Position numbers and translations under genes: made by a program
Shown: positions 8,051 through 50,396 of the stretch, piece by piece
Layout of the letters: the number at the start of each line of letters is the position of its first letter
Position numbering within the stretch: position 1 is the first letter of the stretch
Assembly (NCBI GenBank): GCA_052327205.1
Contig: CM126212.1
Span: forward strand, 209,250,001-209,314,000
DNA length: 64,000 bases
Reading direction: 5' to 3'
DNA from: Somniosus microcephalus
Lineage: Eukaryota
Notes under the pieces: generated by a model
Seen by the model: only the letters and a program-made list of their open reading frames with translations
Databases searched by the model: none
Told to the model about the DNA's origin: nothing

Positions 8051-8428
<378 letters not shown>

Positions 8429-9689
8429 CTAAAAACAATGAAGAGACAGAATATGTTTAAGGCAGTGCGGTGAGTTGAAGTCCACAGTCACTAGACTTTA
8501 TATAAGCATACGCAAGTGACTCAGTTTCGTGCATAGTGAGGTCGGTGAGAACTGCAATAAAACTGGAAAAAAGGCAATTGTAGAACTCATGGAAAGCATT
8601 GGTTAAATAAGCAAAGATCCAATGTGGTGTAACCTAGTAAAAGCCACGTTATTTTGTTACTTAAAGATTTAATGCAATGTCTATCCATGCATGTGAGAAA
8701 GTCTTGCAGTAAGTAAAAGGGTAAAAAGTGAAAAGTAGATTTATTTACATCTTATTTTTAAGATATATATATATATTTATGTATTCAGTATGAACAACAT
8801 ATTAAAACATAGACTACATGGTTACACAATTAAAGTAACAGCTCATTACAAGATGAACACTGAACAGAATGAAGGGAGCTGACAACAGGAAAATGGGAGA
8901 TGAAATGATGTTTTGCTGATGTAGATGGGAGCAGCCAGGAAGCACATCGCGAGACTCACCAGAAATACAAATCATGCCACAGAATAAGGAGGACACATGT
9001 AGATGGAAAAATCTGGCACATAGAGACAGCCATATTCAGAAGCCTGGTTAATGTGAAACATTAACAAGCATAATCCCATGCACATTGGGGTAAACGTTCG
9101 AGTATAGGCCCAGTGTTCTATCTCTGATCTCCATTAGGCCATTTTTGGACTTTTGTTGATGTTAGGAATGTAACAGGTTATGATTTCTCAAAACAATCCT
9201 TCCTTATCCCAGTCAATTCCAAAAAGATAAAGACTACCTTGTGGTATGTTAATTTGACAGTCTGGAATCAACTCCTGGCTGTACAGTTGGATAGTTTCAA
9301 CTGAAGTCCAAAACTTAATTCAAGCTCGCTACAAATTTCAGTTAAAGGGTTGGTTCAAACACTGTTCCGTTAACATGTCACAGGGTATAGGGTTTATTTA
9401 CTTTGGGGGAACAGATGCAGATAAATATAAAAATTACCTTGATTTATGAAAAGCAAGATTACTTTATGTTAGTAGTTTGCTTATTATGTTTCTGTTACCA
9501 ATGTTGAGGTTAAGGTCTGTTGTGCTGATCAGGTTAAATTTGAATTTACAGGGCTATTTAGAATTTAAGCACTACCTACATTATTAAGAGAAAAATCTCA
9601 AAATCTGCTTTAGCAGAATGTGGCCCACAGTTCTCAGCTTAACTTTTCCTGCTTTCTCATCAAATCTCAAGTGTACTTGGTAGCATTTA

Positions 9690-10960
9690 CATCATTCAGG
9701 TTTTAAACAGCTATTGATGATACAACACTCATCATAACCAGACTCGCCAGAGACACCATTAACATCTCCTTCATGTTGTCCCCTGTGCTGCTTTCCACAA
9801 CTGTCACTCTTCCATTTGGGTTTTCCTGTACACAGTCCAACCATCTCAGCTTTGGTCTGCTTGGCGATCTTTTGCCAGTTTCCATAATCTCCCGAGTACT
9901 GATCTTCAACCATCCTTTCACTGTAACACATGCTGTTAATTCACATAGACGGTTCCTTCTCATTATTTCACACTCCTCGTTAGTTCCAACAGTGTGTTTC
10001 AAAAGTATCCAATTTTTGCTTCTGTACCTTCATAAATATCCAGCACTCTGAACCATACAGAGGTACTGACTGTATGCTAACACCCACTATAGGTGTTCCC
10101 TCCTCCAGGGTAGTTTCCATAGTATGTCAAAGCACTTCCAGGTACAGCAGTTCTTGCTCATATTAAGCTTTTTTCCCACATATATAAGCTAATCCCAACT
10201 TCTGCTTGCTTAACATCAATGGTCACTTTCTTCAGTCTTTTAGCTTTCTGTGTTTTTCCTTAAATGATGGAGATAGCATTGATCTTTGAGAAAAGATGTT
10301 GAGACTCCACTTCTTTCCTGCAATACTCATCTCTTTGGTCATCATGATGGCAGTAGCTATGGAGTCAGCAAGGATGGCAACATCAGTTGCATATTCCAGG
10401 TCCTGCCCTACCCTTACATCTTCTGGCTCACTACCCTTGATGTCTCTACCCTTTCAATTTAGCCCATAATAATATTGGATAAGGTGGGTGATAACGCTCA
10501 GTCATTTTAGACTCCTGTCCTCACTTTAACCCATTGTGACATTTTTCCTTCCATTCTCACACAAGTCTTTATTCCCTCATACATATCCTTTAGCAGTCTG
10601 GAAATCTTTCCTACTTCTACTAACTCCCAGACACCATCTCTCCTCACTAAGTCCATCTGCTTATGATTTACAATACACACCCATAAACCTTTTCCATACT
10701 CCCCGTCACTTTTCAATTATCAGGCAGAGTGTGAAGCTCTGGCCAGCAAATCCAGAAGCTCTTCTGAAGCAGCTTTCGAACCAGGTATCTTAGCATCCCA
10801 TGCAGAAGTACCGCAGCCACATTAAGCAGGATAATGATTCTGGAATTTCTATTCCCCCTGTATATAGGCATCATTACTGACAGTTTCCAAAGTGGAGATA
10901 CTTTTCCTGTTTTGAAGACTGAATGACATGAAGCTCTTTCATCATTGCAGACCTCCCATC
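9690..10960 (-). mobile_element. Highly degraded RTE-like LINE
   Basis: Residual peptides GKRSPSRPKLRWLDCV and LLKDMYEG...VKVRTGV; ends approximate. Confidence 0.55.
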
Positions 10961-12655
10961 TTTAAATATCTAAGCATAATATACAAGGTAGTGAAAGTAA
11001 TTGTGATACAGCTAGTCTTATGAAGTGGGGTTTGTCAATTTTTCCAATTAAAAATTTGATTTTCCATTTATCATTTGATTGAATTAGTATGATAGATCAT
11101 GACTTGTAACTGTCTGGTTTTGAATGCTAGCTTTGAAGACAACTTTTTATTTGCCATGTGGGACTGGAATAATTATAGGTAGTGCAAAGTACTGTAGTTT
11201 TATTTCTGTTGACAGTAACACATGATGAATGTCAGTGGTACAAATCAATATCAACCCAAAGTCTGTGCAAATAGAAAAGTGAAATTATTTTGAATAAAAT
11301 ATGTACTCTACCTGTTTAGTTTTCAGTGTATGAACACCATCATTAAATAATTCTAATCTGTTTTAGTATATATAAACAATTTACTTTAAAAAAAAATGTG
11401 CATGCTATTTACTAACTGAATCTGTACAACAAATAAATTTTCCATTCTAAAATGGACAAGGAATTTATTAGGTGCAGAATGACTGATGGGAAGCAAGTGA
11501 TCTGGAAAATAATTCACAGGACATCAAGACAAGTGAGTTCTATGCTCTTGACATCTTTAGGTTTTCTTATTCTACTGATTCCAATTTGGCAATTCTATCA
11601 TTACCACATTGGGAATAATAATAACTAATATAGTTAGAAATGTTGCTTTGCCCATTAAAGACAATACAGACGTACACTTCAACTTATTTCAGTTTTCATC
11701 TTGAGTAATTGTCTAGCTACCTATTTCTGGACTGGGTTTGAACTTGGGGAATTCCAGATGGCTCTCAGATCATGTGTTCTACTTTGCCATCTACTGGCGT
11801 AGAAATGTTACCAATCTTAACATCCCTTTCCATTAAACTGTCACTATGTTTTGTTATAATTTTTGAAGAAACTGTTGTCCCAGGCTATGAATATGAAACA
11901 TGCAGTACTACATCGCATGCATGCTTTTCTCTATCCCACTGAAACAGCCGAGAAAATTTTAGATAAAATGATTTTTACTATAAAATGTGAGAATTTATAA
12001 TCAACTGTAGCCACTTTACTCAGATTTAGTCACATCAAAATATTTCCAACATGTTAAATGCTGACGGTGGGGGACCATGTGGAAACAACTGCCCAGGCAG
12101 TCAGGGCACATTACAAACTAGGCAGTGTCCCTGGACATAGAATATAAGAAAAACGACTGACAATGCACAGGCAGGACAAAAATGAGTAAAAACTTTTTTG
12201 TGGCAGAACAGAAAAACGAACAACAAGAAAATGTACTGTAATTTGACAAAAGACTTGGGGACAAGACTTCATGACACTCTCATGTGGTGGTCTTATTCTC
12301 CAGGGCCTTCTCGTCTTCTGCTTCTCAGTCACCCAGAAAGTGAGGCAAGGCGCAGGAGTGTCCTTGGCAATGAGTACCACAATGGCTTTGTCTAAGATTT
12401 TGCAAGGAAGGAAAAATAGTTTAAGTAAATCAAGCTCATCGTCTTGCTCTTGGGTTTGCCTGGTCTGAGTCGCCACATGAGGGGGGGAAAAAAGAAGAGA
12501 CTGTGTATAGTTCAGATGACACACTGTAAAATTAAAAGATTTTTTTGGCATTCTGTGGGCTTATACTCGAAAGTTTACACACACTTTTTAAGCCTAATAT
12601 CTAGATTCATAGGCCCAAGCAGTTCACATTAATTGCAGGCTCGGGTCAGACTCAC

Positions 12656-12709
12656 AACCTTTATTTCACTCCCTCCTGCTGGACCCTTTGCCTAGGGTTG
12701 TCTAGTCCT
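12656..12709 (-). CDS. ATP2B2: PMCA2 small second site-C exon carrying the 'a' isoform stop (...GQD*)
   Basis: 54-bp candidate: ttttctccag acceptor, GTGAGT donor; position and size fit the small second site-C exon of mammalian PMCA2; early TAG in frame. Confidence 0.65.
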
Positions 12710-12873
12710 CTGGAGAAAACAAACACATTCACTTCAGACACATAACAGGTCGCTGAGAGGTAAATAATATTGAACTCTACAAAAAGACTGACGAGATGAT
12801 TAGTATCAAATAGTTAAAAAGCAAAGTAGAGAGATGTGAAAGATCATCTTGTGCATTAAGAATACACACTCAC

Positions 12874-13051
12874 GCCCAGCAGTAGCAGCAGAAGCGCTGG
12901 TAGGAGAGGAAAGAGCATTGGGAGTAGATAACGATACGTGAGTAGGGCTAGAAATATTGGTTACATCTTGATTTTGGCTGGTAACGGATGACTGCCGCCT
13001 TAGAGCCCCCTGAAAGGAAGTGCCACTCTTGAATGTATTCACTACATCGAT
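12874..13051 (-). CDS. ATP2B2: PMCA2 alternative splice-site-C exon 1 (IDVVNTFKSGTSFQGALRRQSSVTSQNQD...AATAG), 'a'-type isoform
   Basis: 178-bp exon with cag acceptor and GTGAGT donor; closely resembles mammalian PMCA2a IEVVNTFKSGASFQGALRRQSSVTSQ; possible internal donor GTAACC after 87 nt (12965). Confidence 0.9.
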
Positions 13052-13242
13052 CTGCAATGGAGGAGAGAATGAGAAAGTTTGCTGAAGATGGAGATACAAG
13101 ATTAATGTGCCAGGGAACCTCCAATACACAAACATGATTCAATTAGCAAAAATGTACAGGGCCCAACACTTTGATAATTTTGCAGTAAAATAATGATAAA
13201 TTTAAACAAATGCACTCTTACTAATCAATAAAAACCCAAATA

Positions 13243-13852
13243 CAAAAGCAAAATACTGCAGATGCTGGAAATCTGAAATAAAAATGCTGGAAATACTCAG
13301 CAGGTCAGGCAGCATCTGCAGAGAGAGAAACAGAGTTAACGTTTCAGGTCGATGACCTCTCGTCAGAACTGGAAAAAGTTAGAGATGTAACAGATTTTTA
13401 AGCAAGTGTGGGGCAGGGAAAGGGGAGAAAAGAACAAAGGGAAGGCCTGTGATAGGATGGAAGGCAGGAGAGATTAAAAGACAAAAGGGATGATGGTGCA
13501 AGGCAAAAGGAGATGATAATGGGGACAAATTAAAAAACTAAAGATGAGTCTAGATGAGGTGTAAATGGGAATGGCAGAATCATCAACAGCTGCCATGTGA
13601 GAGAGAAAAAAATTTAAACAAAAAAAATATAGGGGCCGAGGTTATGGTCTGAAATTGTTGAACTTGATATCGAGTCCAGAAGATTGTAAAGTGCCAAATC
13701 GGAAGAAGAGGTGCTGTTCCTCGAACTTACATTGAGGACGGAGAGATCAGAGTGGGAGTGGAGCAGAGGTACTTTACAGCCTTCCAGACTCATCTGTTTC
13801 TCTCTCCACAGATGACCTGCTGAGTATTTCCAGCATTTTCTGTTTTTATTTA
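13243..13852 (-). mobile_element. Penelope-like element remnant with inverted terminal copy
   Basis: 13283-13335 is an inverted repeat of ~13793-13840; contains a hammerhead core; homologous to 44760-44886. Confidence 0.7.
13334..13370 (-). ncRNA. Minimal type-I hammerhead ribozyme motif
   Basis: Minus strand AGTT-CTGACGA-G-AGGTC-ATC-GACCT-GAAACGTT-AACT: core boxes, 5-bp stem II, palindromic stem III. Confidence 0.65.
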
Positions 13853-15871
13853 ATAAAAACCTAAAGTTAGTCAACATGGAAATGTCTTGCACCTTGCAGT
13901 TTTTAAACAAGAGTACAGGTTAAAAAACTAGACCAATTTAATTACAACTAGGCTATGTTCTCATGCACAATATTAAAACAAAATAATATATTTTCTGTTA
14001 TCATAGTCAGAGTCATAACGGCACAGAAGGAGGCCAGTTGTCACATAAATTATTTGAACCAGACAGAAATAATCCGCATCATCACTTTCAGTGCAATAAT
14101 TTAATTCTGACATTTTAAGATTATTAAATGTTAGTAAAACATACTCAAGTTTTTGACAAATAATATGACAAAAATGTAATTCTCTATCAACACAGCTTGG
14201 TAAAACTCATTTCAGTATTGCGGCCACATGCCATTATTTATTCATGGCAGACTGGGCACTTAAAGGAAACCAAGATTACTCAACAATAACACTGAACTAC
14301 CCCATCATTTTCTTTTTATTGGTAAAATGAAGCTCAAATTTGAATATGTTAAAGATAAATTGGTCATGCAATCGTATTGCAATTAGTTTCCACAGAACAA
14401 TATCTCACTTGCCAACAGAAAATATGTTTTTGAAAGCAAACAAATTGCACCGAATTTGCAAATCTACATTTGTCTCCATTTAATTTCAAATTTTTCTTAA
14501 CCCTTTAATAACTGAATGTCAAAATATTTAACAATTGGCTCCTCCAATAGCTCAGCTGGATAAAACAGTGAGTAGCCCAGCCATAAAGACCAGATAGCAC
14601 TTTAGCATGTTTCTTTACATTAACGCAAATGGAAGTTGTTATTGCAAGCTGAGCTAGCCGATCTCAGCTGGGGCCAATGGTGGCTTTGGCATCTCCAGGC
14701 TGGGGCTGGGGGAGAAATAGTCAACAATCCCACTTTTGAACATTATGCATTAAGTCCTGCTGGAGTGGGGAGGGAGAACCTCCACGGTTTAACAGTCTGC
14801 AACAATCACTCCAGATTCATGCAGAAAGACCACTTGGATAATGAATATAAGGGTCACCACTGCCCACAGAACTGTATCCAGCGTGAGTCACCAACTTCAG
14901 CATGAGGGGTATGGAGTGAAAATTGGAGAACATTACAAAAAAAAATTTTTTTTAATCTATTGCTGAATTAGAGATACATTAAACTACACAAGGTACAAAT
15001 TCACTTTTTTCTTTGAATAAACGAAAAAAAGTGTGATTTAATTATATCTTTTATTTAGATGCACAAATCACTATTGCAGTCCTCAAAGGGTTGAAACACA
15101 GGTGCTTGCAATATCCATGGGGATTCTCCAGCAAAATATCAATGAAGCTTATGGCAGGAGATTAGGAGAAACCCATCAAAAATTTTCCCCAAGTAGTTTT
15201 ATAACTTCAGAATAATGTGTAACCCTGTTACTTTCACTATTACAATCTTTCTTAAGAGGAAACTTTTCACAGAAAATCACATACTTGTGTTGAAGATTTG
15301 AAGGCAATGCTTCAAAAAGAGCTACGGCAAGTATATAAGCTCTTCTGAACCTGAGAACACACAATCACTAACTCCACTTTAATGCTAGTCTGGTAAACTA
15401 CTGCAGTAAAGATTGCAGAAGGGACTGAGGGAATATAATTAAACTCAAAGTTTCAATAAGATATTTAGAAACACTGGAAAAAACATAATGGGAATCGACT
15501 TGAAAAGGCTTTGGAATAAATATGACAATAAATGAAAAATGCCAATTATTGCTTGACCTGAGGGATAGTATTTTGACAATGATTATCCAGGAATTTATTA
15601 TAGGAAGGAACATAGGAACAGGAGTAGGCCATTCAGTCCCTTGAGCCTTTTCCACCATTTAATGACATTATGGCTGATCTGCATTAAACTCGAGCTGAAT
15701 GTGTTTGAAATGTGGAAATTAGATGCATCTATTTGGCCAACTACAGCTTATCTTCCAAGACACGAGTTCTACTAACTGCTGATGTAACTCACTGAGGATG
15801 TCTGGCTGTAAAATAGTCTGGTCCAAGGGTGGAATAACATTATACATGGTGAGGTGTATGTATGTTATCAT

Positions 15872-16945
15872 TTCAGAATGATAGCGGGGCTTAGAGGATT
15901 ATATTATGAGGACAGGTTGCATCAACTTGGCTTGTATTCCCTTGAGCATAAAAAATTGAGGGGTGATCTGATCAAAGTGTTTAACATGTTGAAAGAATTT
16001 TCACAGGAAAAGCGGGTGGGTTGGAGGTGGGGGTGAAAGTTGTAAAAATCTAAAACCCGATCCCAACCCGCCCACTTTCACCTTTTAGTCAGGTGGGGGC
16101 GGGCAGCCAACCCGCTGCCAGGAGGCCGGTTGGTATTTAAAATATTAGAATGAGGCCTGAAGCCTCTACTTTAACATGCTGTGCATGTTTACCTGCGGGC
16201 GGCTGCGGATCCCGGGGCTCGGGATTCCCGGTAGCTGCAATGAGACGGTCACAGCTTCGGGGAGCAATCCTTGTGGGCCGGGAGGACCAGAAGTGCTTCC
16301 TCCAGGCCCCCCAAGTTCCCCCACCAGCAGACTGCACCCCCAGGGATCAGGGTTCGGACCCCCTCCAGGGGTCGGACACCCCTCCCACCACGTTTGGAAC
16401 CCCACCCCCAACTACCATCCTGGGCCCAGCACCTACCTGGTCCTGCAGCCTCCTGGTCCGTGTTCCCCGCCCGACTGGAAGCCAGCCTGTCAATCAGGCC
16501 GGCTTCCGGGCATGAAGCCCGCCCTTTACGTCGCTCGCATGCGGAAACCCGGACTTCCAGGTTTCGCACTGTCTCCCAGGTCCCCCTGCACCGTGTGGAT
16601 GGGAAACGGGAATATCCTGGCCAGAGAAAGTATTTCCTCTGGTCAGGGAATCAAGAACGAGGGAGATCATCTTAAAATCAGAGCTAGGCCATTTATTAGG
16701 GAAATCAGGAAGAACTGTTTCCACAAAGGATAGCAGAAATCTGGAATTCTCTGCTCCAAAAGGTGGTGGATGCTGGGACAATTGGAGCTTTTAAGACTGA
16801 GCTGACAGATTTTTGTTCAGTAAGGGTATCAAGGAATATGGAGCTAAGGCGGATCAATGGAGCTGAGGTACAGATCAGCCATGATCTAATTGAATGGTGG
16901 AGCAGGCTTGAGGGGCTGAATGGCCTACTCCTGTTCCTATGTATC
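15872..16945 (+). mobile_element. CR1 3' fragment interrupted by a GC-rich MITE-like insert (~15995-16622)
   Basis: GLYYEDRLHQLGLYSLE..LRGDLI before the insert; CR1 resumes afterwards to ggcctactcctgttcctatgt. Confidence 0.8.
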
Positions 16946-17024
16946 TTAATATCTGAGCAAGAGAATTTTTATACCTGCTATCATGAATTTGTAGACAACA
17001 GAGACTGCTTGCTCTAAGCATATA

Positions 17025-17317
17025 GGCCTAGAAATTGCAGGCCACTGCTGTGGCAACAGAAGAACTGGGAGTGCCATTTAAGTGGCAGAAGTGCCCCAAA
17101 AATCTGAATCAATGTCCCACTGAAGGTCTTAACCAAGACTTGATCCTTTAGTAGGAGCCAGAGCGGAGGAATAACAGGCTCTACAAAGGCCTCGTCCTCC
17201 ATGTGGGCACATCAGAACCCTTACCACCAGCTTCCTCATGGCGGCCCCGAAAAGCACTGGTAACACAAGAGAACAGGAGGGACCCAGGCCCCACACCCAC
17301 TGCTGCAATTTACAGGT
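17025..17317. mobile_element. Old Harbinger-type MITE candidate
   Basis: Left end GGCCTAGAAATTGCAG (same start as 50397); degenerate right end CTGCAATTTACAGGTT. Confidence 0.45.
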
Positions 17318-18704
17318 TGAGGGTAGTGAAGGATGGGCCTGTAGCAGTCCCAGCTGGGGTAGGCAGAGGGAAATATTTCGGCTGTGAGGTGTTGGTAGAC
17401 CTCACTGCCCACATTTCCTTCATTCGCTGCTTTTGGGCAGAATCATGAAAGAGAATCCAGCTCAGAGCTACAAACTGGTGAAGGGAAAATTTAGGGCTGA
17501 TATCAGGAAGCATTTCTTCACAGACAGTAATCAATATTTCTAATAGACTTCGAGGAAGAGTAGTGGAGGCAAAACCTTATAGTTGTTCAAGAGCTTAATG
17601 AAGAGGGCCTATTGATGTTTTCTTTTTTGGACAGATGAAGGAGGGCTAAATAGCTTTCTTCAACTGTATTCACCTTGTGATCATTGCATATATTAAAAGG
17701 TGGTTGATGTTAGATTGAGAGTAGAGGAATGGATATGCTTTCTTTCTCTATGAATAATTCCAATAATTTAAACAAATAACCTTTACTTCCTGATTCTGAA
17801 AAACTTCAACCTGGAATTAATGGACACTAAACAAAACATATAACAAACAATCCTAAGAATTGTGTTAAGAGCCAGTAATTACAAAAAATCTTCTGGTAGA
17901 ATATTCATTTTCCCACATGTCAGTAAGAAATCCTACTTTTAGTGCAGCAAGTGCAGACCAAATTTATAAACCAGTAGAGCTTCATTTGGGAAAAATCAGT
18001 CTTGCACTGTGCAGTAAGTATTTGAATACTTTTTAGGTTCAATCAGGAATACTGAGTTATCGTAAGTAATTAGAGAATTTTATATATTTAGGAAAAAAAA
18101 TCATGTAGTAGATATTCTTCAACATTTGATTGTAAGATGAATCAGGAAGAACAAGATCTTACCAGTAATGGCAATCAACACTCAAACCACATATAAAAAT
18201 ATCCTAACCACTTCATATTAAACATTTGCTAATGTATAGTATGAACTGCTTCATAATATAACATGGAGAACTTTTTTTTTAATAAAGGGTATTCATACTG
18301 TCTTAAATGCAAGGAAATGAATGTGCAAACATGAGTAAAATTAGATAGCACATTTTAGATCAAGATAAATAAGCATCATATCTGAGTAATGGAAATATAT
18401 GAAAGTGCATCATGTCAAAGATAAGATCATCAGTGTAATATACAAACCCATTAGATCATTATACTGCTTAAATACAACATTATTTATTCTTAATTTGTAT
18501 TTTACTCCTGGCATTATTTTCTACTAAAGCCAAAAGGTAGGACAATTTAAATACTAGAACATAAAAGACAGGAATGTGAGCAGCCCATTCAGCTCATAAA
18601 AATCCTACTGATTCAGTCAGGATCTGCTCAAAGCATTGCGCTCCCTTTGTGTTTGATTTTATTGGATCAGGATTCCGCCAATTTTGAATGCTTCCATTAA
18701 ATTT

Positions 18705-21700
18705 GCATTCACTGGACCTGGTGGCGGTCTATTCTGTATGTTAACAAGCCACTGAACGAGATTGTGGTCTATCACATATGTTAATTCACTGGACCTGGTG
18801 GCGGTCTACTCTGTATGTTAACAAGTCACTGAACGAGATTGTGGTCTATCACATATGTTAATTCACTGGACCTGGTGGCGGTCTATTCTATATGTTAATT
18901 CACTGGACCTGGTGGCGGTCTATTCTGTATGTTAACAAGTCACTGAACGAGATTGCGGTCTATTCTATATGTTAACAAGTCACTGAACTAGATTGCGGTC
19001 TATTACATATGTTAATTCACTGGACCTGGTGGCGGTCTATTCTGTATGTTAACAAGTCACTGAACGAGATTGTGGTCTATCACATATGTTAATTCACTGG
19101 ACCTGGTGGCAGTCTATTCTGTATGTTAACAAGTCACTGAACGAGATTGTGGTCTATCACATATGTTAATTCACTGGACCTGGTGGCGGTCTATTCTATA
19201 TGTTAATTCACTGGACCTGGTGGCGGTCTATTCTGTATGTTAACAAGTCACTGAACGAGATTGCGGTCTATTCTATATGTTAACAAGTCACTGAACTAGA
19301 TTGCGGTCTATTACATATGTTAATTCACTGGACCTGGTGGCGGTCTATTCTATATGTTAACAAGTCACTGAACGAGATTGCGGTCTATTCTATATGTTAA
19401 CAAGTCACTGAACTAGATTGCGGTCTATTACATATGTTAATTCACTGGACCTGGTGGCAGTCTATTCTATATGTTAACAAGTCACTGAACTAGATTGCGG
19501 TCTATTACATATGTTAATTCACTGGACCTGGTGGCGGTCTATTCTATATGTTAACAAGTCACTGAACTAGATTGCGGTCTATTACATATGTTAATTCACT
19601 GGACCTGGTGGCGGTCTATTCTGTATGTTAACAAGTCACTGAACGAGATTGCGGTCTATTACATATGTTAATTCACTGGACCTGGTGGCGGTCTATTCTG
19701 TATGTTAACAAGTCACTGAACTAGATTGCGGTCTATTACATATGTTAATTCACTGGACCTGGTGGCAGTCTATTCTATATGTTAACAAGTCACTGAACTA
19801 GATTGCGGTCTATTACATATGTTAATTCACTGGACCTGGTGGCGGTCTATTCTATATGTTAACAAGTCACTGAACTAGATTGCGGTCTATTACATATGTT
19901 AATTCACTGGACCTGGTGGCGGTCTATTCTGTATGTTAACAAGTCACTGAACGAGATTGCGGTCTATTACATATGTTAATTCACTGGACCTGGTGGCAGT
20001 CTATTCTGTATGTTAATTCACTGAACGAGATTGCGATCTATTCTATATGTTAACAAGTCACTGAACGAGATTGTGGTCTATCACATATGTTAATTCACTG
20101 GACCTGGTGGCGGTCTATTCTATATGTTAATTCACTGGACCTGGTGGCGGTCTATTCTGTATGTTAATTCACTGGACCTGGTGGCGGTCTATTCTATATG
20201 TTAACAAGTCACTGAACGAGATTGTGGTCTATCACATATGTTAATTCACTGGACCTGGTGGCGGTCTATTCTGTATGTTAACAAGTCACTGAACTAGATT
20301 GCGGTCTATTACATATGTTAATTCACTGGACCTGGTGGCGGTCTACTCTGTATGTTAACAAGTCACTGAACTAGATTGCGGTCTATTACATATGTTAATT
20401 CACTGGACCTGGTGGCGGTCTATTCTGTATGTTAACAAGTCACTGAACTAGATTGCGGTCTATTACATATGTTAATTCACTGGACCTGGTGGCAGTCTAT
20501 TCTGTATGTTAATTCACTGAACGAGATTGCGGTCTATTCTATATGTTAACAAGTCACTGAACGAGATTGTGGTCTATCACATATGTTAATTCACTGGACC
20601 TGGTGGCGGTCTATTCTATATGTTAATTCACTGGACCTGGTGGCGGTCTATTCTGTATGTTAACAAGTCACTGAACGAGATTGCGGTCTATTCTGTATGT
20701 TAACAAGTCACTGAACTAGATTGCGGTCTATTACATATGTTAATTCACTGAACTAGGTGGTGGACTATTCTCTATGTTAACAAGTCACTGAACTAGATTG
20801 GGTCTACTCTATATGTTAACAAATCACTAAACGAGATGGCCGTCTGTTCTACATTTTTACAATTCATTGAACGAGATGGTCGTCCACTCTATATGTTTAT
20901 AAATCATTGAACGAGATGGTAGTCTACTCTATATGTTTATAAATCATTGAACTAGATGGTAGTCTATATGTTTATAAATCATTGCACGAGATGGTAGTCT
21001 ACTCTATATGTTTATAAATCATTGAACTAGATGGTAGTCTATATGTTTATAAATCATTGAACGAGATGGTCGTCCACTCTATATGTTTATAAATCATTGA
21101 ACTAGATGGTAGTCTACTCTATATGTTTATAAATCATTGAACGAGATGGTCGTCTACTCTATATGTTTATAAATCACTGAACGAGATGGTCGTCTACTCT
21201 ATATGTTAACAAATCACTAAACTAGATGGTCGTCTACTCTATATGTTTATAAATCATTGAACGAGATGGTCGTCTACTCTATATGTTTATAAATCATTGA
21301 ACGAGATGGTCGTCTACTCTATATGTTTATAATTCATTGAACGAGATGGTCGTCTACTCTATATGTTTATAATTCATTGAACGAGATGGTCGTCTACTCT
21401 ATATGTTTATAAATCATTGAACTAGATGGTCGTCTACTCTATATGTTTATAAATCATTGAACGAGATGGTCGTCTACTCTATATGTTTATAAATCATTGA
21501 ACTAGATGGTCGTCTACTCTATATGTTTATAAATCATTGAACTAGATGGTCGTCTACTCTATATGTTTATAAATCATTGAACGAGATGGTCGTCTACTCT
21601 ATATGTTTATAAATCATTGAACTAGATGGTCGTCTACTCTATATGTTTATAAATCACTGAACGAGATGGTCGTCTACTCTATATGTTTATAAATCACTGA

Positions 21701-22042
21701 ACGAGATGGTCGTCTACTCTATATGTTTATAAATCATTGAACGAGATGGTCGTCTACTCTATATGTTTATAAATCATTGAACGAGATGGTCGTCTACTCT
21801 ATATGTTTATAAATCACTGAACGAGATGGTCGTCTACTCTATATGTTTATAAATCATTGAACGAGATGGTCGTCTACTCTATATGTTTATAAATCACTGA
21901 ACGAGATGGTCGTCTACTCTATATGTTTATAAATCATTGAACGAGATGGTCGTCTACTCTATATGTTTATAAATCATTGAACGAGATGGTCGTCTACTCT
22001 ATATGTTTATAAATCACTGAACGAGATGGTCGTCTACTCTAT
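18705..22042. repeat. Satellite/minisatellite array, left part: mixed 37-bp and 40-bp monomers to ~20760, then a homogeneous 40-bp monomer
   Basis: A=AATTCACTGGACCTGGTGGCGGTCTATTCTGTATGTT, B=AACAAGTCACTGAACGAGATTGCGGTCTATTACATATGTT, C=AAATCATTGAACGAGATGGTCGTCTACTCTATATGTTTAT. Confidence 0.95.
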
Positions 22043-22396
22043 GGGCTAGATTTTCAGTTTAGGCAGTTTTGGGGCGCTAGCTTTAGCGCCCGCCCGAAGT
22101 TAGCGCCCGCCCCAAAGTAGCGCCCCGTTGCCGGGAATTCAGTGGCTTCGCCCTAAGAGGTTGGTGGAGCGCTAAAAGAGGCGTTCCACTACTCTCTTTA
22201 GGCGCTAAGCCGGCGGTCCAGAGGGATAGCGCCCAGGCGGGGCGCAGCACGGGTGCGGTCATTTTTGCACTGACAGCAGACCCCGTGGTGCCGACCAGCT
22301 CTTAAAGGGGGAAGGGACGAATTGGTCTGCTGCCACGCCCTGCACACTGCAGCCTTGCAAAGAGGCCTCAACACTACTGCTCAGCCCCAGGGAGTC

Positions 22397-24553
22397 ATGG
22401 CAACGCCAGAGAAGGCCCGTCAGCGTGCCCTGCGCTTCTCAGAGGGTGATCTGGACATCATGCTCACAGCTCTGGAGGTGAGGCGCAAGATCTTGTTTCC
22501 AGACAGTGGGAGGAATCCAACCCACCACGACTACACCAAAGCCTGGAAGCAGATCGCCCAGAGGGTGACGTTCACCGGCGAGGCCCCCAGGACCCACACA
22601 CAATGCCGGAAGAAGTACAACGATCTGACCAGGATTGTGAGGGTGAGTAGCCTTTCCAGTCTCCTCCTCATTCTTGCATGTACACCTGACATGATGGGCA
22701 AAGGGACCTGAAAGTCCTTTTGGCCAGCCCTCAGCCAGCAGCATTGGGACAGTCATGAGCATCAAATGGCCATTCGGCACTCTACACTTTGGCCAAGCTA
22801 TTCCACCATGGGAGGCAGTGCACACTACATCAGGGCTTCACTCTGTCCAAGCTATTCCACCATGGGAGGCAGTGCACACTACATCAGGGCTTCACTCTGT
22901 CCAAGCTATTCCACCATGGGAGGCAGTGCACACTACATCAGGGCTTCACTCTGTCCAAGCTATTCCACCATGGGAGGCAGTGCACACTACATCAGGGCTT
23001 CACTCTGTCCAAGCTATTCCACCATGGGAGGCAGTGCACACTACATCAGGGCTTCACTCTGTCCAAGCTATTCCACCATGGGAGGCAGTGCACACTACAT
23101 CAGGGCTTCACTCTGTCCAAGCTATTCCACCATGGGAGGCAGTGCACACTACATCAGGGCTTCACTGCGCACTTACAGCCCGTCCTTTCTCTTGCAGGCT
23201 AAAGTAGCGTTTAATCGCCAGGCCCGTGCCAGGGGTGGCCGCGCCAAGCTGCAGAAGCTCACTCGGCTGGAGGAGCGCGTGTGTGTGCTCATGGGAGCAC
23301 GTGTGATTGTCCCCACAGCGTGCGGTGTATCCGACCCTCCACTGCCCGGCAATGGTAAGGACCTCGCCTTTTGGCCCTCTCGCGTCGCACTGGCCCATCC
23401 GAGCTACCTCCTTTGCCACTGTCCCACCAATGCGCTGAATCCCACCAGTCCTAACTCCCTCGCTGACGCCGTCTCCTCACTCTGAAGCTACTCTTGTGCA
23501 TTCATGCTTTCAGCTGGTGACGACCAGGACCCTGAGGCTGCCAGTGACAGCACCTCCAACCAGGAGGAGGAGGAGGAGCAAGCCGGACCTTCGGGGGAAC
23601 AGTCACGTCCCGCAGGAGAGGAGGAAATGCTCGACACCTCCTCACTGGACGAGTGCCTGGAGGAACTGTCGCAGGGCAATGCAGCTTCTAGGACCAGTGG
23701 CGTCCAGCCACCCAGCAGCCGTGCGCGTGGCCCGCGGCCTTCCCCCCAAAGGGGGGAAGGATCAGAGGGGAGTGCTGCTGCTCGGCACACTCGCCGTCAC
23801 CAACGCGGCAAGGGTCCCCTAGTTCGGCCCCCTCCTCCCCAGCGGGAGAGTCGCGACTCCAGTCCGGACACCTTCACTTCGGAGGAGGTGCGGAAGCTCG
23901 ATCAGATGGCCGACGACTCGGACCGGCGCCACACGGAGCTCATGAGCGTGGTGGGGCGCATGCCTGAGGCCATCGAGTCGCTGGCGACCAGTGTGCGCGT
24001 GTTCGGGGCAGCAACTGCCGCGACTGGCCGCATGCTAACTGATGCCGTCAAGACCCTGGCGGATGTGAAGCGCGCGCACACCAGGACCACAGGGCCACTC
24101 ACTGCTGCCACACGCGCTGTCTCAGGCAGGCATCGCCAGGGCAGGCGCCGCGCTGGACCATCCCAGCAAGCCGGCCGTCGGCTGATTGCTGCGGATCCTG
24201 CAGTGCGGGCCCGGCCGAGTGCCACCGCGCCACAGCACCAGCCAGCGCATCCCAGACGCCAGCTGGCCCACATTGCACCATCCGTCGCCGCCATTCCCCC
24301 TCTGGGGCGTCAAGGGCAAGCGGCTGCAGCTGATGGTGGCCAGGCTCAGGCGCGCCACTCAGGAGACGGCCCCTCGAGGCCCAAACGCCGTGTAGGCCGC
24401 CCCCCAGCGGCATCTGGCGGAAGGGCATCTGAGCCTCAGGCGCCTTCCCCCAGCCTCGCAGCAGCCACTGGGCAGAGCTTGCGAAGGAGCAGCAGGCAGG
24501 GCAGGGGAGGCAAAATGCTGGCCAAGGTCTCGCCCTCGCGGGCCACTCAGTAG
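22397..24553 (+). CDS. Harbinger Myb/SANT-like DNA-binding protein, 3 exons: 22397-22642, 23198-23354, 23514-24553 (~480 aa)
   Basis: Exon 1 RFSEGDLDIML...LFP...AWKQIAQRV...RTHTQCRKKYNDL (trihelix/MSANTD-type); GT-AG introns with compatible phases (0, 1); acidic and low-complexity C-terminal part. Confidence 0.88.
22793..23166 (+). repeat. 54-bp tandem repeat, ~7 identical copies, in intron 1 of the Myb-like gene
   Basis: Unit CCAAGCTATTCCACCATGGGAGGCAGTGCACACTACATCAGGGCTTCACTCTGT. Confidence 0.95.
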
Positions 24554-24916
24554 AGGGTGTGGCCAGCTTTCCTTTAATATGGCGGTGGCCATCTTTATTT
24601 TGCCCATGGTTGTGCTTTTGGAGGGCTTTTTTTTTGCGTTAGGCCGACGTTGAGGCCCGGTTTCAATAAAGGTGGAGTGGCTCCTCCCCAGTTTGTGGGA
24701 GTGAGTCGTTTGTTGGGCTTTTTGTGGGGCCCGTTTATTGTTTTTGGGGATTCATGTGGGAAGGGCTTTCCATTTTTGTTTAATAAAAAATTATCTTTAT
24801 TCATGCAGTCTCCATGGTTGTTCTTCTTAGTGTTTGTTGGCTTCGCCGGCTGAGGGCTTGCGGAGCGGCTGCATTCATCTTCCCTCATGGCCCCTGGCCA
24901 TTCCCTGACAGGGGGC

Positions 24917-26071
24917 TTAGAAGTACCGTGTAATAAGGTGGCGTCGTGCGGCCCTTGGCCCTGGTCGCTCCCTCCTGGGAACGTACTCCTGCTCCTCCTC
25001 CTCCTCCTCCTCCTCATGCTCCTCCTGCTCCTCCTCCTGAGGTGCTGGTCCAACGTCAGGTGGCAGTGCCTGAGTCCTGCGGATAGCCAGGTTGTGTAGC
25101 ATGCAGCAAACCACCACAAATTGGGAGACCCGGTCCGGCGAATACTGGAGAGCTCCTCCGGAGCGATCAAGGCAGCGGAACCGCTGCTTGAGGACCCCAA
25201 TAGTTAGCTCGATGATGTTGCGGGTGGTTTGATGGCTCTCGTTGTAGGCCTCTTCAGCAGCGGTCCTGGGCGCGCGGAGCGGGGTCATGAGCCAGGTGCA
25301 CAAAGGATAGCCTTTGTCCCCGAGTAGCCATCCTCTTGGGGGAGGCTGTGCCTGGAACATGTCATGCACAGTACTCTGCCGCAGGATAAAGGCATCGTGG
25401 CTGCTGCCTGGGAAGCTGGCATTGACTGCCATGATGCGCTGCTTGTGGTCACAGACCAGCTGCACATTCAGAGAATGGTAGCCCTTCCTGTTGCGATACT
25501 GCTCGCCATGCTCCAGAGGGGCCCGCAAAGCCACATGCGTACAGTCAATGGCGCCCTGCACCAAGGGGAATTCCCCGAGTCTGGAAAATCCCAATGCGCG
25601 CTGATGCTGGCTCTCCAGGGCCATGGGGAAGGAGATGAATTGGCTTCTCCTTCTGAACAGTGCTTCTGTCACCTGGCGGATGCAGCGATGCGCGCCGTAC
25701 TGGGAGATGTTTGCTATGTCCCCAGCAGCGTATTGGAAGGAGCCGGTGGCATAGAAGTTCAATGCCACTGTCACCTTCACTTCCACCGACAGAGACGTCC
25801 TGCACCTGAGCTTTGGCCGCAGATCTCGGCGAAGCAGGTGGCAGACCTCTGCAATCACCTCCTTTCGGAATCGGAGCCTTTTAACACATCGCGCGGCACT
25901 CATGTTTAGGTAGGAGCGCTGCTGGCGGTATAGCCTGACTGGGTAAGGCCTACGTGGCCGACGCCTGTAGCCCCCTCTGCCTCTAGCCAGGGCTGCCCCT
26001 CTCACAATGCGTCTGCGAGCCCTACGGACATGGAGCTGCAGCTCCGCGTTGGCACCCCATGCAACCCCCAT
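24917..26071 (-). CDS. Harbinger DDE transposase (HARBI1-like), 384 aa, intronless, uninterrupted
   Basis: Motifs GAIDCTHV, NRKGYHSLNVQLVCD, GSSHDAFIL, WLLGDKGYP, RNIIELTIGVLKQRFRCL; HTH-like FYATGSFQ..GD...ISQ; first ATG at 26071 (the ORF track starts on a TTG). Confidence 0.95.
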   Translation of the reverse strand: MGVAWGANAELQLHVRRARRRIVRGAALARGRGGYRRRPRRPYPVRLYRQQRSYLNMSAARCVKRLRFRKEVIAEVCHLLRRDLRPKLRCRTSLSVEVKVTVALNFYATGSFQYAAGDIANISQYGAHRCIRQVTEALFRRRSQFISFPMALESQHQRALGFSRLGEFPLVQGAIDCTHVALRAPLEHGEQYRNRKGYHSLNVQLVCDHKQRIMAVNASFPGSSHDAFILRQSTVHDMFQAQPPPRGWLLGDKGYPLCTWLMTPLRAPRTAAEEAYNESHQTTRNIIELTIGVLKQRFRCLDRSGGALQYSPDRVSQFVVVCCMLHNLAIRRTQALPPDVGPAPQEEEQEEHEEEEEEEEQEYVPRRERPGPRAARRHLITRYF

Positions 26072-26392
26072 CAAATCCTGGCAAACACTCTAATTTCCAA
26101 ATGGCCACTTGCAGCGCTGTTGCCTGAGTCCAAAAATACCTGGCTCTTGCTGCTTGAAACCAGTTAGCTATCCTCCTTGTTGTGTCTCCAGAAATGCGTT
26201 GCACAAGACTGTTTTCTGAAATAATGGATGGCCTTTATACTGGAGAGGACGTTCCCTTTAATTAGCGCCCCCCGGGGCCCGCGCTGGTTGTGTTGCGTTC
26301 CTTTTTCCAAACGCTCCGGCCGCCCGCCGCACAATGGGGCGGTCCGACTGAAGTTTGCAATCGGGGCGGCCAAAGGGCGTTGCACGAGGATG

Positions 26393-26400
26393 TGACGTCA
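26393..26400. promoter_or_regulatory. Palindromic CRE-like TGACGTCA upstream of the transposase
   Basis: Exact motif; minus-strand TATAAA at 26234-26239 lies between it and the ATG; function untested. Confidence 0.35.
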
Positions 26401-26571
26401 TTTTCTGCGCGCGCAGCCGGGCGGGCGCTAAACTTTGCGCCGGCGCTAACGGGCAACTTAATTTGGGGCGGGGCGCAAACTGCGCTGCGCCCGGGCGCTA
26501 CACGCATAGCGCCCGGAAATCACTTCTCTTAAGGCGCTAACTGCTGGCGCAAGCAACTGAAAATCTAGCCC

Positions 26572-26825
26572 TATATGTTTATAAATCATTGAACGAGATG
26601 GTCGTCTACTCTATATGTTTATAAATCATTGAACTAGATGGTCGTCTACTCTATATGTTTATAAATCACTGAACGAGATGGTCGTCTACTCTATATGTTT
26701 ATAAATCATTGAACGAGATGGTCGTCTACTCTATATGTTTATAAATCATTGAACTAGATCATGGCTTATTCCATACGCTTAAAAATCACTGAACTAGATG
26801 GTCGTCTATTCCAAATGTTAACAAA
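26572..26825. repeat. Continuation of the 40-bp satellite beyond the Harbinger insertion
   Basis: Same C monomer resumes in register after the TAT duplication, then degenerates. Confidence 0.93.
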
Positions 26826-27392
26826 TGTGAGTCGCTGTACCTTTAGTTATATTTATCTGGAAGTTGGTCTCGAATGTAGCAATGTTCCCTTATTTATTTC
26901 TCTTGGTTCAACACACAAACTTCTCCAAATCCATCTCATTTATTCCTTTGTGATTTAAAAATCTTTATTACTTCTTTCACATAATCTTATGTGATCCATG
27001 AGAGGAAGGTGCTGGGTGCAGGTAACTGCTTCTCACAGGAAAATCACAAGGTGAAGAAACCAACCTATTCTTCCTACCAGCTGGAACAACACTACACAGA
27101 CATTTAAAACAAAAACAGAGAGGGGAACATTAATCTGTCTTGTGTAAATCTGTTTCTACAAATACATATATATTTATTTTAAAAACTGCATGAAAAAAGC
27201 AACTATTTAACATAGAATGATATGGCACAAAAGGAGGCCATTCGGCCCATTGTGCCTATGTGCTACAAAAATTAGGAAATAACCTCCTATCTGACACAGT
27301 ATCTATTTATTATAACATGAGGATGAATAGGACAGTAGGATATGTTTTTTCAAAAGTTTGTAGACATAGCACTAGCATGGTATTGAACATAC

Positions 27393-27575
27393 CTGAGTTT
27401 GGATCCTGTTTAGACCTCTGAACCAAAGAATCTGCCCACGCCGAAGTTCTCTCTCTGCATGATCAATTTCTTCAGCATCTTCATTAAGCTCCTCTTCTGG
27501 GATGTCATCCTTGTGAGTTCCATGGCCTGCCTCCTTCAGAAACTTCAATCGATTGGTTGGAATGGAGGATATTAC
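27393..27575 (-). CDS. ATP2B2: PMCA2 coding exon ending in first half of calmodulin-binding domain (...[22 protein letters not shown])
   Basis: 183-bp exon, AG/GT, canonical [18 protein letters not shown]. Confidence 0.95.
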
Positions 27576-29519: not shown

Positions 29520-30642
29520 AAGCATAATTATATTAGCATGGATGGATAGAGAATTGGCTAACTAACAGAAAGCAGAGAGTCAGATAAATGGGTAATTTTC
29601 CGGTTAGCAAACGGTAACTAGTGGGCTGCCACAAGGATCGGTGCTGGGGCCTCAACTATTTACAATCTACATTAATAACTTGGATGAAGGGACCAAGTGT
29701 AATGTAGCCAAGTTTGCAGATGATACAAAGATGGGTGGAAAAGCAAGTTGTGCAGAGGACTCAAAGAATCTGCAAAGGGATACAGACAGGCTCAGTGAGT
29801 GGGCAAACATTTGGCAGCTGGAGTATAATATGGGAAAGTGCGAGGTTATACACTTTGGCAGGAAAAATAAAAAAGCAAATTATTATTCAAATGGAGAGAG
29901 ATTTCAAAATGCTACAGTTCAGAGGGACCTGGGGATTCTTGTGCATGAAACACAAAAAGTTAGCAGGCAGGTACAGCAAGTAATCAAAAAGGCAAATGGA
30001 ATGTTGGCCTTTATTTCAAGGGGGTTGGAGTATAAAAGCAGGGAAGTCCTGCTACAACTGTACAGGCTATTGGTGAGACCACACCTTGAGTACTGTGTAC
30101 AGTTTTGGTCTCCTTATTTAAGGAAGGATATACTTGCATTGGAGGCAGTTCAGAGACGATTCACTAGGTTAATTCCAGAGATGAGGGGTTTGACTTATGA
30201 GGAAAGGTTGAGCAGGCTGGGCCTATACTCATTGGAGTTTAGAAGAATGAGAGGTGATCTTATTGAAACATATAAGATACTGAGGGGGCTCGACAGGGTA
30301 GATGCAGAGAGGATATTTCCCCTCGTGGGGAAATCTAGAACTCGGGGGCACAGTTTTAGAATAAAGGGTCGCCCTTTTAGAACTGAGATGAGGAGGTATT
30401 TCTTCTCTCAGAGGGTCGTAAATCTGTGGAATTCTTTGCCCCAGAGAGCCGTGGAGGCTGGGTCATTAAATACATTTAAGGTGGAGATAAACAGATTTTT
30501 GCAAGATAAGGGAGTGAAGGGTTATGGGGAGCGGGAGGCGAAGTGGCTTTGAGCCCAAGATCAGCCATGATCTTATTGAATGGCGGAGCAGGCTTGAGGG
30601 GCCAAGTGGCCTAATCCTGCTCCTATTTCTTATGTTCTTATG
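29520..30642 (+). mobile_element. 5'-truncated CR1 LINE; open RT C-terminal frame 29641-30552
   Basis: LGPQLFTIYIN...KFADDTK...RPHLEYCVQFWSP; CR1 3' UTR ending atttcttatgttcttatg. Confidence 0.93.
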
Positions 30643-32184: not shown

Positions 32185-33012
32185 TAAATACTGGGAAGAC
32201 CGAAGCCATTGTTTTCGGTTCCCTGCCACAAACTCCGTTCCCTAGCCACTGACTCCATCCCTTTCCCTAACATTTGTCTGAGGCTGAACCGCACTATTCG
32301 CAACTTTGGTGTCATATTTGACCCTGAAACGAGCTTCCGACCACATATCCGCGCCATAACCAAGACCGCCTATTTCCACCTCTAACATTGCCAGTCTCCG
32401 TCCTTGCCTCAGTTAATCCGCTGCTGAAACCCTGATCCATACCTTTTTACCTCTAGACTTGACTATTCCAATGCACTCCTGGCTGGCCTCTCACGTTCTA
32501 CCCTATGTAAACTTGAGGTCATCCAAAACTCTGCTGCCCGTGTCCTAACTCGCACTAAGTTCCGTTCACCCATCACCCCTGTGCTCGCTGACCTACATTA
32601 GCTCTAGATTAAGCAACGCCTCAGTTTTAAAATTCTCATTCTTGTTTTCAAATCCCTCCATGGCCTCACTCCTTCCTATCTCTGTAATCTCCTCCAGCCC
32701 CACAACCCCCCCGAGATATTTGCACTCCTCTAATTCTGCCCTCTTGAGCATCCCTGATGATAATCGCTCAACCATTGGTGACCGTGCCTTCTGATGTCTA
32801 GGCCCTAAGCTCTGGAATTCCCTCCCTAAACCCCTCTGCCTCTCCTTCCTCCTTTAAGATGCTCCTTAAGACCTACCCCTTCAACCAAGCTTTTGGTCAT
32901 CCGCTCTAATTCCTCATGGGGCTTGTTGTCAAATTTCTGTCTTATGATACTCCTGTGAAGTATCTTGGGATGTTTTACTATGTTAAAGGCGCTATATAAA
33001 TACAAGTTGCTG
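32185..33012 (+). mobile_element. L2-clade LINE 3' fragment
   Basis: Degenerate SRLDYSNALLAGL...IQNSAARVLT; tail ggcgctatataaatacaagttg. Confidence 0.85.
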
Positions 33013-34373
33013 TCATTGTTGTTGTTACATACCAATTGGAGTTTGATGGTTCACATATCTTTTTTTTATATACTTCTCCCATCTCAAGAATGAACAAAGT
33101 CTCTGCCATCTTGAAAATGAGCAAAACCTGTCCAAAGAGGCCTGACGTCAAACTATGTATTCTGGATGCACTGTAAATGACTTTTTTCCATGCACTTCAG
33201 ATACTACACAAACATATTTCTTCAGAAAATTCTATAACAGAAATATTTGGAATAAATTTTACAGTACAATGCCCATTGCTAAATGACAAATGCTGAAATA
33301 CCAGAGAAAAAATGAACAATTTCATTTTTAATGAATTTTTGGAATGCAAGGCAATGTAACTCTTCGTTCATCCTGCCATCAAATTTCCAAAACGAATAAA
33401 TTGGTTGATGCTTATTGGATTTTCAATAACAGTCGGCATAGTAGGCCCATTACCCTTCTACGCAGCACTGTGTAGAGTCACAAATCATAAAAAGCAAGCA
33501 TTATATTTTCAAAGAATAAAAGAGTAATAAGAAGCAAATATTTTCACTTATTTATTTCTGCATTACTGACAAATAGCATCATTTTTATTCCCCCAGGATA
33601 AAGAAACGTACCTAGTGAATGGTGTATATAAAAAAACTTGCTTGAAATATATTTTGTTTATATATGCATAAGGCGGCAAAATATTTGTACATGTCCTGAA
33701 GCTGGTTTGTGCAATAAAAAGCTGACTTTTATGTCTCCACCTCTACATACTTTGTTTTAATACTTGCAGTTACTTCTCTTCACCTCTCAAGAAAATGCTA
33801 TTGTATGGTTACACTTGCACTAACTACCCACCAGTACCTTACGCATGTGAGTATTGCCAGGCTATTGGACCATGGAAATTATTACAGCATCTGGTCCTGT
33901 CCTCAGCTGGTGTCTATGGCTGTGTATTTTCCAGCAAGGGTTACTGGATAGTCAACAGGCCAGGAGCATTGACTATATTTTCTCCTCTGTAGCTAAGAGA
34001 TGCTAAGGATAACTGTGCTGCTCCAACACTGGCCCAGATCAGATAGTTCAGCAAAGACCAGGGATTGAACCTGGGACCTTTATAGATGACATGACTTAGA
34101 ATCACACCACGTAGTGCAAGTACCCACTGAACAACCACCCCATCATATCTTTTCAAGTCTGAAACACAATTTTAAGATTTCACTGAATTAACCAACTGCT
34201 GTAAGAATTTTCTTTGTTAATCATAAACTTTTCTATTCATAACATTTATGAAGAAAGAAAACCATTATCTTGATCCCTGATTTGTTTTCCGAAAAGGAAT
34301 TCTTGAACTCTTGTTTTCTTTTATAGAGAATGATAAGAACTGGATGAATCGATCTGACAAAGACAAATACATT

Positions 34374-49363: not shown

Positions 49364-50396
49364 TATGCAAAATGAAACCATTCATACTGGCTCAAAAGGG
49401 ATATGCTTCCAAGGCAGAAGTTAAGGCACATTGTTGAAGTACAACAAAAGAAACTTTACCTCCGTTTGCCCCATACACTACCTGAATGGGCAGAAAATAG
49501 AAAAATATTCAAGGTCCAGAATTGGTATCTCTTATCGAGATGACTACAAGAAGTAAGGATCGAGCATGGTATTGAATTGAACAGCTCCATTACAGTTAAA
49601 CATCAATCACTAGAGGGTGCTCAAATCTTATCAAGTGCTGATGCCTGGCAGAAGAAGGTTTTAAGGTTGCTCTATTTACAGTTACATAGTAATATTCTGT
49701 ATAAATTAACGGAAAACTGCCATCCCACTGGGGTTGGTGTGAAGGTGAGCAATTAGACTAAAAGTTCAGAATAGCCAAAATGGTTACTAATAGCAACAGT
49801 AGTATCCAACGACGTCTGCTGTCAACAGTGATATTTTTGGAAGACTTTAAGCAGAGTGACTTTCTTCTAGAACCTTCAAAATGATCACAGGATTTTTAAA
49901 ATTCCCTTGAAAAATATATTATTGAAAAGATCATGATGGATAGTCTGCTCTGAATCTTGTTGAGTGCTCAGTTTATTTCAAGAAAAAAATTTTTGGCTTG
50001 CAAACCAGAAATGATGGACAGCAATGCTTCTTTATTCAATTGATTAAAGAAGCATCACTGTTGATCCAACAATTTTGAGGAAATAATATGCAAAGCAAAG
50101 CTTTGGGTACTGATATTAGTTAATTATTGAAGTGACATTATAAAAGTAACATCCTAAGTCTTGCTTAATGAAGTAATTTTGAAAATAATAGCTTTCTCCA
50201 GACCATTTCTTAAATATTACATGTTCGAAGGCTTTTCCCATGCCACTGGACCACTGCTGACTCATCAATGCCCACAACTTTCTTGACTACTCTCAAAAAC
50301 GGTTGCAACTAATGTTGGAATATGGCTTCATAGGTGCCATTAGTGCTCCAGTACCTCACCCAATAACCATTCTACTTGCGTGAGCCTAGACAATGA

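Follow-up and report, generated by a model that had tools for sequence, protein, structure and literature searches.

A structurally complete two-gene PIF/Harbinger transposon within a minisatellite of a plasma-membrane Ca-ATPase intron in Somniosus microcephalus

The element and its insertion site

The window considered here is a 64,000-nucleotide stretch of the Somniosus microcephalus genome (assembly GCA_052327205.1, contig CM126212.1, positions 209,250,001 to 209,314,000 of the forward strand), and all coordinates count from its first letter. Within it lies an element with the parts by which an autonomous PIF/Harbinger DNA transposon is recognised: perfect 17-bp terminal inverted repeats (TIRs), a target-site duplication (TSD) of 3 bp, an intronless gene for a transposase of the DDE (Asp-Asp-Glu) type and a separate second gene for a Myb/SANT (trihelix) protein (Table 1). 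It is structurally complete and has no visible inactivating lesion. All the structural features that a sequence-only reading had noticed at this locus have held up, namely the perfect TIRs, the exact TAT duplication, the stop-free 384-amino-acid transposase with acidic catalytic motifs, a spliceable three-exon Myb/SANT gene and CpG dinucleotides that have not decayed.

The TIRs are shorter than the 25-50 bp given for PIF/Harbinger elements in PMC9179366 and near the roughly 15 bp of PMC9710019. The element splits a 40-bp minisatellite, which provides its own empty-site control: when the element and one TAT are deleted in silico, an intact 40-bp unit is left that is present ten times elsewhere in the window. 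Because removal restores this unit, the TAT duplication is real and not a 1-in-64 chance match, and the restored unit therefore also argues against mis-assembly. A 2-bp TA duplication was considered as the TSD and discarded, as it leaves the element ends asymmetric. Tandem repeats are error-prone in assemblies, and an element inside one might be an assembly artefact or contamination; this explanation is scarcely credible, however, as a mis-join would not yield an exact 3-bp duplication abutting both TIRs within one unit, and the window is without N bases.

Around the insertion the minisatellite is strikingly uniform. Among 21 units (21385-26756) only two of the 40 columns vary, each variant occurs to the left as well as to the right of the element, and none of the 21 has lost its CpG at columns 7-8. 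These data suggest insertion into a freshly homogeneous block, with the caveat that minisatellite arrays can go on homogenising after an insertion. Away from the insertion, at 18707-20835, the 40-bp units give way to a 37+40 bp higher-order pattern. The ratio of observed to expected CpG is 0.65 in the element as against 0.38 and 0.39 in its flanks, and lies at 0.61-0.71 in the coding parts; intron 1 of the Myb gene is the exception, at 0.08.

Table 1. Features of the element, its insertion site and the host gene (window coordinates)
Feature	Position	Strand	Basis or remark
Full-length autonomous PIF/Harbinger element	22043..26571		4529 bp, 60% GC; TIR to TIR
Left TIR, 17 bp	22043..22059	+	100% complementary to right TIR
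Right TIR, 17 bp	26555..26571	-	Pairs with left TIR
Left TSD copy, TAT	22040..22042	+	Empty-site unit test
Right TSD copy, TAT	26572..26574	+	Adjoins right TIR
Host 40-bp minisatellite split by the element	18707..26826 (18707-22042 and 26572-26826)		Tandem-repeat search
Left subterminal cluster, 6 exact TAGCGCC and 1 with one mismatch	22073..22233		Candidate Myb-protein binding sites
Right subterminal cluster, 6 exact TAGCGCC and 3 with one mismatch	26263..26552		Motif search
Myb/SANT exon 1, 82 codons, trihelix domain	22397..22642	+	Pfam PF13873, 3.6e-11; 52 relatives at E<=0.001
54-bp tandem repeat in Myb intron 1, 7.1 copies, 99% matches	22785..23166	+	Frame unaffected
Myb/SANT exon 2	23198..23354	+	Homologue alignments through the exon 1/2 junction
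Myb/SANT exon 3, encoding an acidic low-complexity region and a basic tail	23514..24553	+	Open frame; stop 24551-24553
Spacer between the convergent genes	24554..24916		AATAAA at 24665, 24782 (+) and 24594, 24734, 24796 (-), putative poly(A) signals
Intronless transposase coding sequence, 384 amino acids	24917..26071	-	ATG 26071, stop 24917; no internal stop
Catalytic D176, D252, E288	25544-25546, 25316-25318, 25208-25210	-	Homologue alignment; D226 also present
TATAAA, possible promoter	26234..26239	-	Some 165 bp upstream of the transposase start codon
Host interval between two constitutive plasma-membrane Ca-ATPase exons	8363..27392	-	Exons with Pfam ATP_Ca_trans_C and Cation_ATPase_C
Alternative Ca-ATPase exon	~12874-13051	-	Inside the element-bearing interval
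Last exons of the plasma-membrane Ca-ATPase gene	8054-36635	-	Last exon from 8362

The two genes and the element ends

The transposase matches DDE_Tnp_4 (PF13359) at 1.4e-39 with its D176/D252/E288 triad intact, a combination kept in only 58 of the 109 homologues that cover these positions; the three best hits have R, K and K in place of the catalytic Glu. Of the 135 columns that at least 70% of the homologues conserve, it agrees at 130, level with the best of the 120 homologues listed (median 83%), and at the 30 positions where it departs from the majority residue CpG decay is never the explanation. The predicted structure has an RNase H-type core (mean pLDDT, the predicted local distance difference test, 80), in which one strand would hold D176, D252 would come just past a strand and a helix would hold E288. 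The solved structures most like it are those of DDE transposases, namely piggyBac (Z 9.4, root-mean-square deviation [rmsd] 5.3, 234 residues aligned) and Tn5 (Z 8.9, rmsd 5.5, 236 aligned), with modest Z for both, and a sequence search of the PDB returned a single low-complexity match only.

The Myb/SANT gene begins at the ATG at 22397, and its predicted spliced product of 480 amino acids has no internal stop; both introns are GT-AG. Exon 1 matches Myb_DNA-bind_5 (PF13873). A word-based search with this exon against longer proteins gave 42 candidates, none of which reached E<=0.001, and an exhaustive search then recovered 52 relatives at that threshold. Local alignments of the spliced protein to the 52 run across the exon 1/2 junction, which a Pristiophorus gene model (P0005) shares, and P0126, P0129 and P0141 align in the frame of exon 3 as far as 24514. 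Exon 3 gives no hint of a frameshift, because P0141, whose alignment covers residues 14-463, and P0126, which reaches the basic tail, align in that same frame. On a crude splice score the acceptors rank first and second of 60 and the donors second and third of 51, exon 2 having the first-ranked acceptor and the third-ranked donor. A short stretch at a GG motif in exon 2 was considered as a lesion and rejected, its length varying among homologues. In intron 1, six of the seven full units of the 54-bp repeat are identical, which points to recent growth of the array, either in this copy alone or across the family. The two genes converge, and AATAAA occurs on both strands within about 20 bp (24779-24801), a possible two-way polyadenylation site. 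Both proteins are probably competent.

Both element ends carry clusters of the motif TAGCGCC. Twelve of its 14 occurrences in the window lie in these ends, along with four one-mismatch copies; shuffling gives an expectation of 2.18 for the window, and none of 100 shuffles reached 14. All 12 exact copies in the ends, each bearing a CpG, are intact. The Myb protein of the zebrafish element Harbinger3_DR binds a 9-bp subterminal motif (PMC9710019), and by this analogy the TAGCGCC clusters are likely binding sites for the Myb protein encoded here. The two copies outside the element (32930-33050 and 49280-49400) sit in stretches that resemble each other and appear to be copies of one further dispersed repeat. 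As for the target, a TWA consensus is given in bioRxiv 10.64898/2026.05.26.728016, and Harbinger3_DR is described as targeting a 15-bp palindrome around a CWG core (PMC3016246). TAT matches neither TWA nor a CWG-centred palindrome, with the proviso that a single site defines no preference.

Relatives, age and rival explanations

Protein searches place the transposase among the elasmobranchs. Sharks and rays account for 111 of the 120 homologues listed, including the first 59, and the best identity among the matches listed is 66% by BLAST, or 68% over 285 tree columns. In a midpoint-rooted tree of 55 rows, in which 54 of the listed homologues were picked for length and species spread, the transposase groups with eight Pristiophorus proteins (support 95/96) inside a 46-row clade that is otherwise entirely elasmobranch (100/99). 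The nearest sequences are P0002 and P0005 of Pristiophorus japonicus, both annotated as 'putative nuclease HARBI1'. The P0005 gene model fuses Myb exons 1-2 to a transposase, and its two parts run in the same direction whereas the genes of the element converge, which suggests that some relatives have a tandem instead of a convergent gene order. The idea of a possibly undescribed family stands in part: no relative above 68% identity appears in the protein sets searched and the element probably belongs to an unnamed elasmobranch family, but it is a further member of a known two-gene transposon type and not a new kind of system.

This placement bears on origin. The GC and CpG content of the element is high relative to its flanks, and Harbinger transfer has been reported in sea kraits (PMC8437027) and between teleosts, all of which would suit an element recently acquired by horizontal transfer from a marine donor outside the elasmobranchs. 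Such an origin is nonetheless improbable given the preponderance of sharks and rays among the hits and the nested Pristiophorus and elasmobranch groupings in the tree; transfer between sharks may have occurred.

The same relatives raise the question of domestication, in which the two genes would be a pair held under host selection like HARBI1 and NAIF1. Both frames are whole, domesticated-looking clades occur among the shark and ray relatives, and the database label of the matches is that of HARBI1. However, dozens of distinct proteins in Pristiophorus bear that label, the listed shark and ray proteins include no orthologue more than 68% identical, and the insertion sits in a homogeneous minisatellite. 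Domesticated genes are marked by the lack of TIRs or a TSD (PMC9710019) and the element has both, making domestication very improbable. Among the relatives themselves, P0006, P0012, P0013, P0015, P0016 and P0018 form a clade of transposases with a broken triad (100/99), to which six shark and ray species contribute one member each, with core identities of 74-90% and the two rays grouped together. To judge from these sequences it looks like an elasmobranch-specific domesticated gene, for which no counterpart was found in the one listing checked, and the pairs P0007/P0008, P0014/P0021 and P0020/P0057 (87-90%) suggest that there are more.

How long ago the element arrived can be bounded in terms of divergence. 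Neutral decay was simulated with indels set to 8% of substitutions and the CpG factor to values of 1-10, with 400 runs for each setting. At 0.5% divergence 17-24% of runs kept reading frames, splice sites, triad and TIRs all undamaged; at 1% the share was 3.5-6%, and at 2% it was at most 0.25%. The simulation thus places the copy below about 1% neutral divergence. The 798 invariant minisatellite bases around the insertion show no private change, which caps divergence at about 0.4% provided that no later homogenisation evened out the two sides. At the epaulette shark mutation rate of 7e-10 per base per generation (PMC10587355), however, 0.5-1% corresponds to 7-14 million generations. Such figures only cap the age, and anything from a few generations to many millions of years would be compatible with them. 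The description of the element as intact and recently active thus survives as regards the lack of visible lesions and youth in divergence; recency in calendar time does not follow, because the shark clock is slow.

That slow clock is also an argument for an old or subtly dead copy, whose family has long been immobile or which has itself suffered a quiet substitution, mis-splicing or loss of a promoter. Slow mutation keeps old copies looking whole, and long open frames persist at this locus in three frames of long interspersed nuclear elements (LINEs), stop-free over 812, 438 and 314 amino acids. Several further observations weigh against a young and competent element. Five conserved transposase columns differ (S93, G166, E167, Y192, H236), with H236 found in none of 112 homologues and G166 and E167 in one of 115 each; with no family consensus to refer to, these could be family traits or lesions. 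A donor-like site at 22477, inside Myb exon 1, tops the donor score, at a value as high as that of the predicted donor, with which it would compete. The absence of CpG decay from the transposase is itself not rare, in that homologues show the CpG-decay residue in 235 of 3950 cells, simple arithmetic has 38 intact CpG-sensitive sites arising by chance about one time in ten, and 22 of the 120 homologues listed likewise show no such decay. A Foldseek search with the transposase model gave no match at E<=0.001. Only a single copy is known, neither a second copy nor a miniature inverted-repeat transposable element (MITE) being present in the window, where a search for either returned three chance-level matches, and the copy was selected for looking intact. 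There is a precedent as well in Harbinger-Snek of sea kraits, which is much less active now although its copies are intact (PMC8437027). Set against this are the minisatellite bases without a private change (with the same proviso on later homogenisation), the full set of CpG-bearing motifs and the state of the LINE frames, which are depleted of CpG (0.30-0.36) where the coding parts of the element are not. A dead copy is on balance unlikely, if well worth taking seriously, and the element is probably what it appears to be, a young, complete elasmobranch PIF/Harbinger copy that is not visibly decayed.

Mode of operation, host context and significance

Harbingers require both proteins, usually excise precisely and produce a 3-bp duplication upon insertion (PMC2836001). 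The element most likely operates like Harbinger3_DR, by the standard two-protein route, in which the spliced Myb protein would bind the repeated subterminal motifs, associate with the transposase and carry it into the nucleus, where the DDE transposase would cut at the TIRs. Insertion with a 3-nucleotide stagger would generate the duplication, and arrival in the minisatellite within the Ca-ATPase intron would have been by cut-and-paste.

The host gene was recognised from four of 240 frames in Pfam scans. The element sits 822 bp past the splice donor at 27393, upstream of the alternative exon and the last exon, and both it and the minisatellite lie within the alternatively spliced interval, which is probably the 'site C' region, the gene being probably the ATP2B2 paralogue. 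An effect of the element on host splicing or polyadenylation is possible, because the transposase gene is in the sense orientation relative to the Ca-ATPase gene and brings AATAAA signals with it. The three LINE frames nearby are CR1-type reverse-transcriptase frames at 40147-42582 (-), 47846-49159 (+) and 29608-30549 (+), with a mutual DNA identity of only 66-73%. Among named animals one such frame matches Scyliorhinus torazame at 59% over 78% of the query, Mobula at 50%, and birds and turtles at about 35-53%; its top matches are unnamed or mislabelled, and the best (P0174, 67%), labelled Carnobacterium maltaromaticum on a 3-kb contig, is probably animal DNA contaminating a bacterial record. 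As a marker of the host this frame is partly informative: its best match by identity among named animals is a catshark, which agrees with the transposase tree in pointing to a shark or ray.

Comparison with known systems is instructive. Harbinger3_DR (Sinzelle et al. 2008, as described in PMC2836001, PMC9710019 and PMC3016246) shares with the element a DDE transposase, a Myb-like gene, TIRs, a repeated subterminal motif and a 3-bp duplication, a likeness of architecture. It was rebuilt from a consensus whereas the element is a natural copy, and its target is palindromic whereas the TAT site is by eye non-palindromic. Rice Ping/Pong-mPing has the same two-protein architecture and 3-bp TSD, but belongs to a plant clade, targets TAA/TTA instead of TAT and has proven natural activity (PMC2836001). 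HARBI1 and NAIF1/MSANTD represent the same two protein families in domesticated form (PMC9392472); by description these are fixed host genes at conserved positions, in contrast to an element with TIRs and a TSD. Harbinger-Snek is, like the element, a natural vertebrate Harbinger with both genes intact, but it was acquired horizontally and makes up 8-12% of its host genome, whereas the relatives of the element are elasmobranch. PMC8437027 gives 269 fully intact copies in Laticauda colubrina, so that the rarity of intact vertebrate Harbingers had been overstated, and reads over both genes of the sole intact copy in L. laticaudata; the available text of that paper reports no mobility assay.

Harbingers are unevenly recorded among vertebrates. 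They are widespread and expressed in teleosts, and a 2022 survey that detected none in elephant shark called for the examination of other cartilaginous fish (PMC9179366). The superfamily appears in repeat tables for the whale shark and grey reef shark (PMC8455134, PMC12498223), reaches 9.3% of the coelacanth genome (PMC3787270) and has expanded recently in a newt (PMC5741667). In the open-access literature, with subscription journals and Repbase Reports lying outside it, we found no description of a complete chondrichthyan Harbinger. Within that same literature no native vertebrate Harbinger was found to have been assayed in cells, and the only vertebrate Harbinger found to have been shown to jump is the reconstructed one. 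New in the present analysis are the minisatellite empty-site control, the 12 intact subterminal TAGCGCC motifs and the location in a Ca-ATPase intron.

As a gene-transfer tool, an idea that is speculative, the element has the handicap of needing two proteins where several native single-protein systems already exist, and Spy, a relative from the wider PHIS group that is active in its native form, is already in use as a tool (PMC11304231). Since the only vertebrate Harbinger found with demonstrated mobility had to be rebuilt, and the structure searches brought up no closely similar solved structure, an undamaged natural gene pair that comes with end motifs of its own lends itself to work on mechanism, structure and target choice, and is a good candidate for assay. 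A bolder proposal is that the family is mobile today, with this native insertion polymorphic, the unmodified proteins able to transpose in vertebrate cells, a target outside TWA and CWG, and sense-strand poly(A) signals that may disturb splicing at the C-terminal end of the Ca-ATPase. We regard this as rather doubtful; if true, it would provide a vertebrate Harbinger that works without reconstruction, and a DNA transposon still alive in a genome that mutates slowly and is dominated by LINEs would be interesting in its own right.

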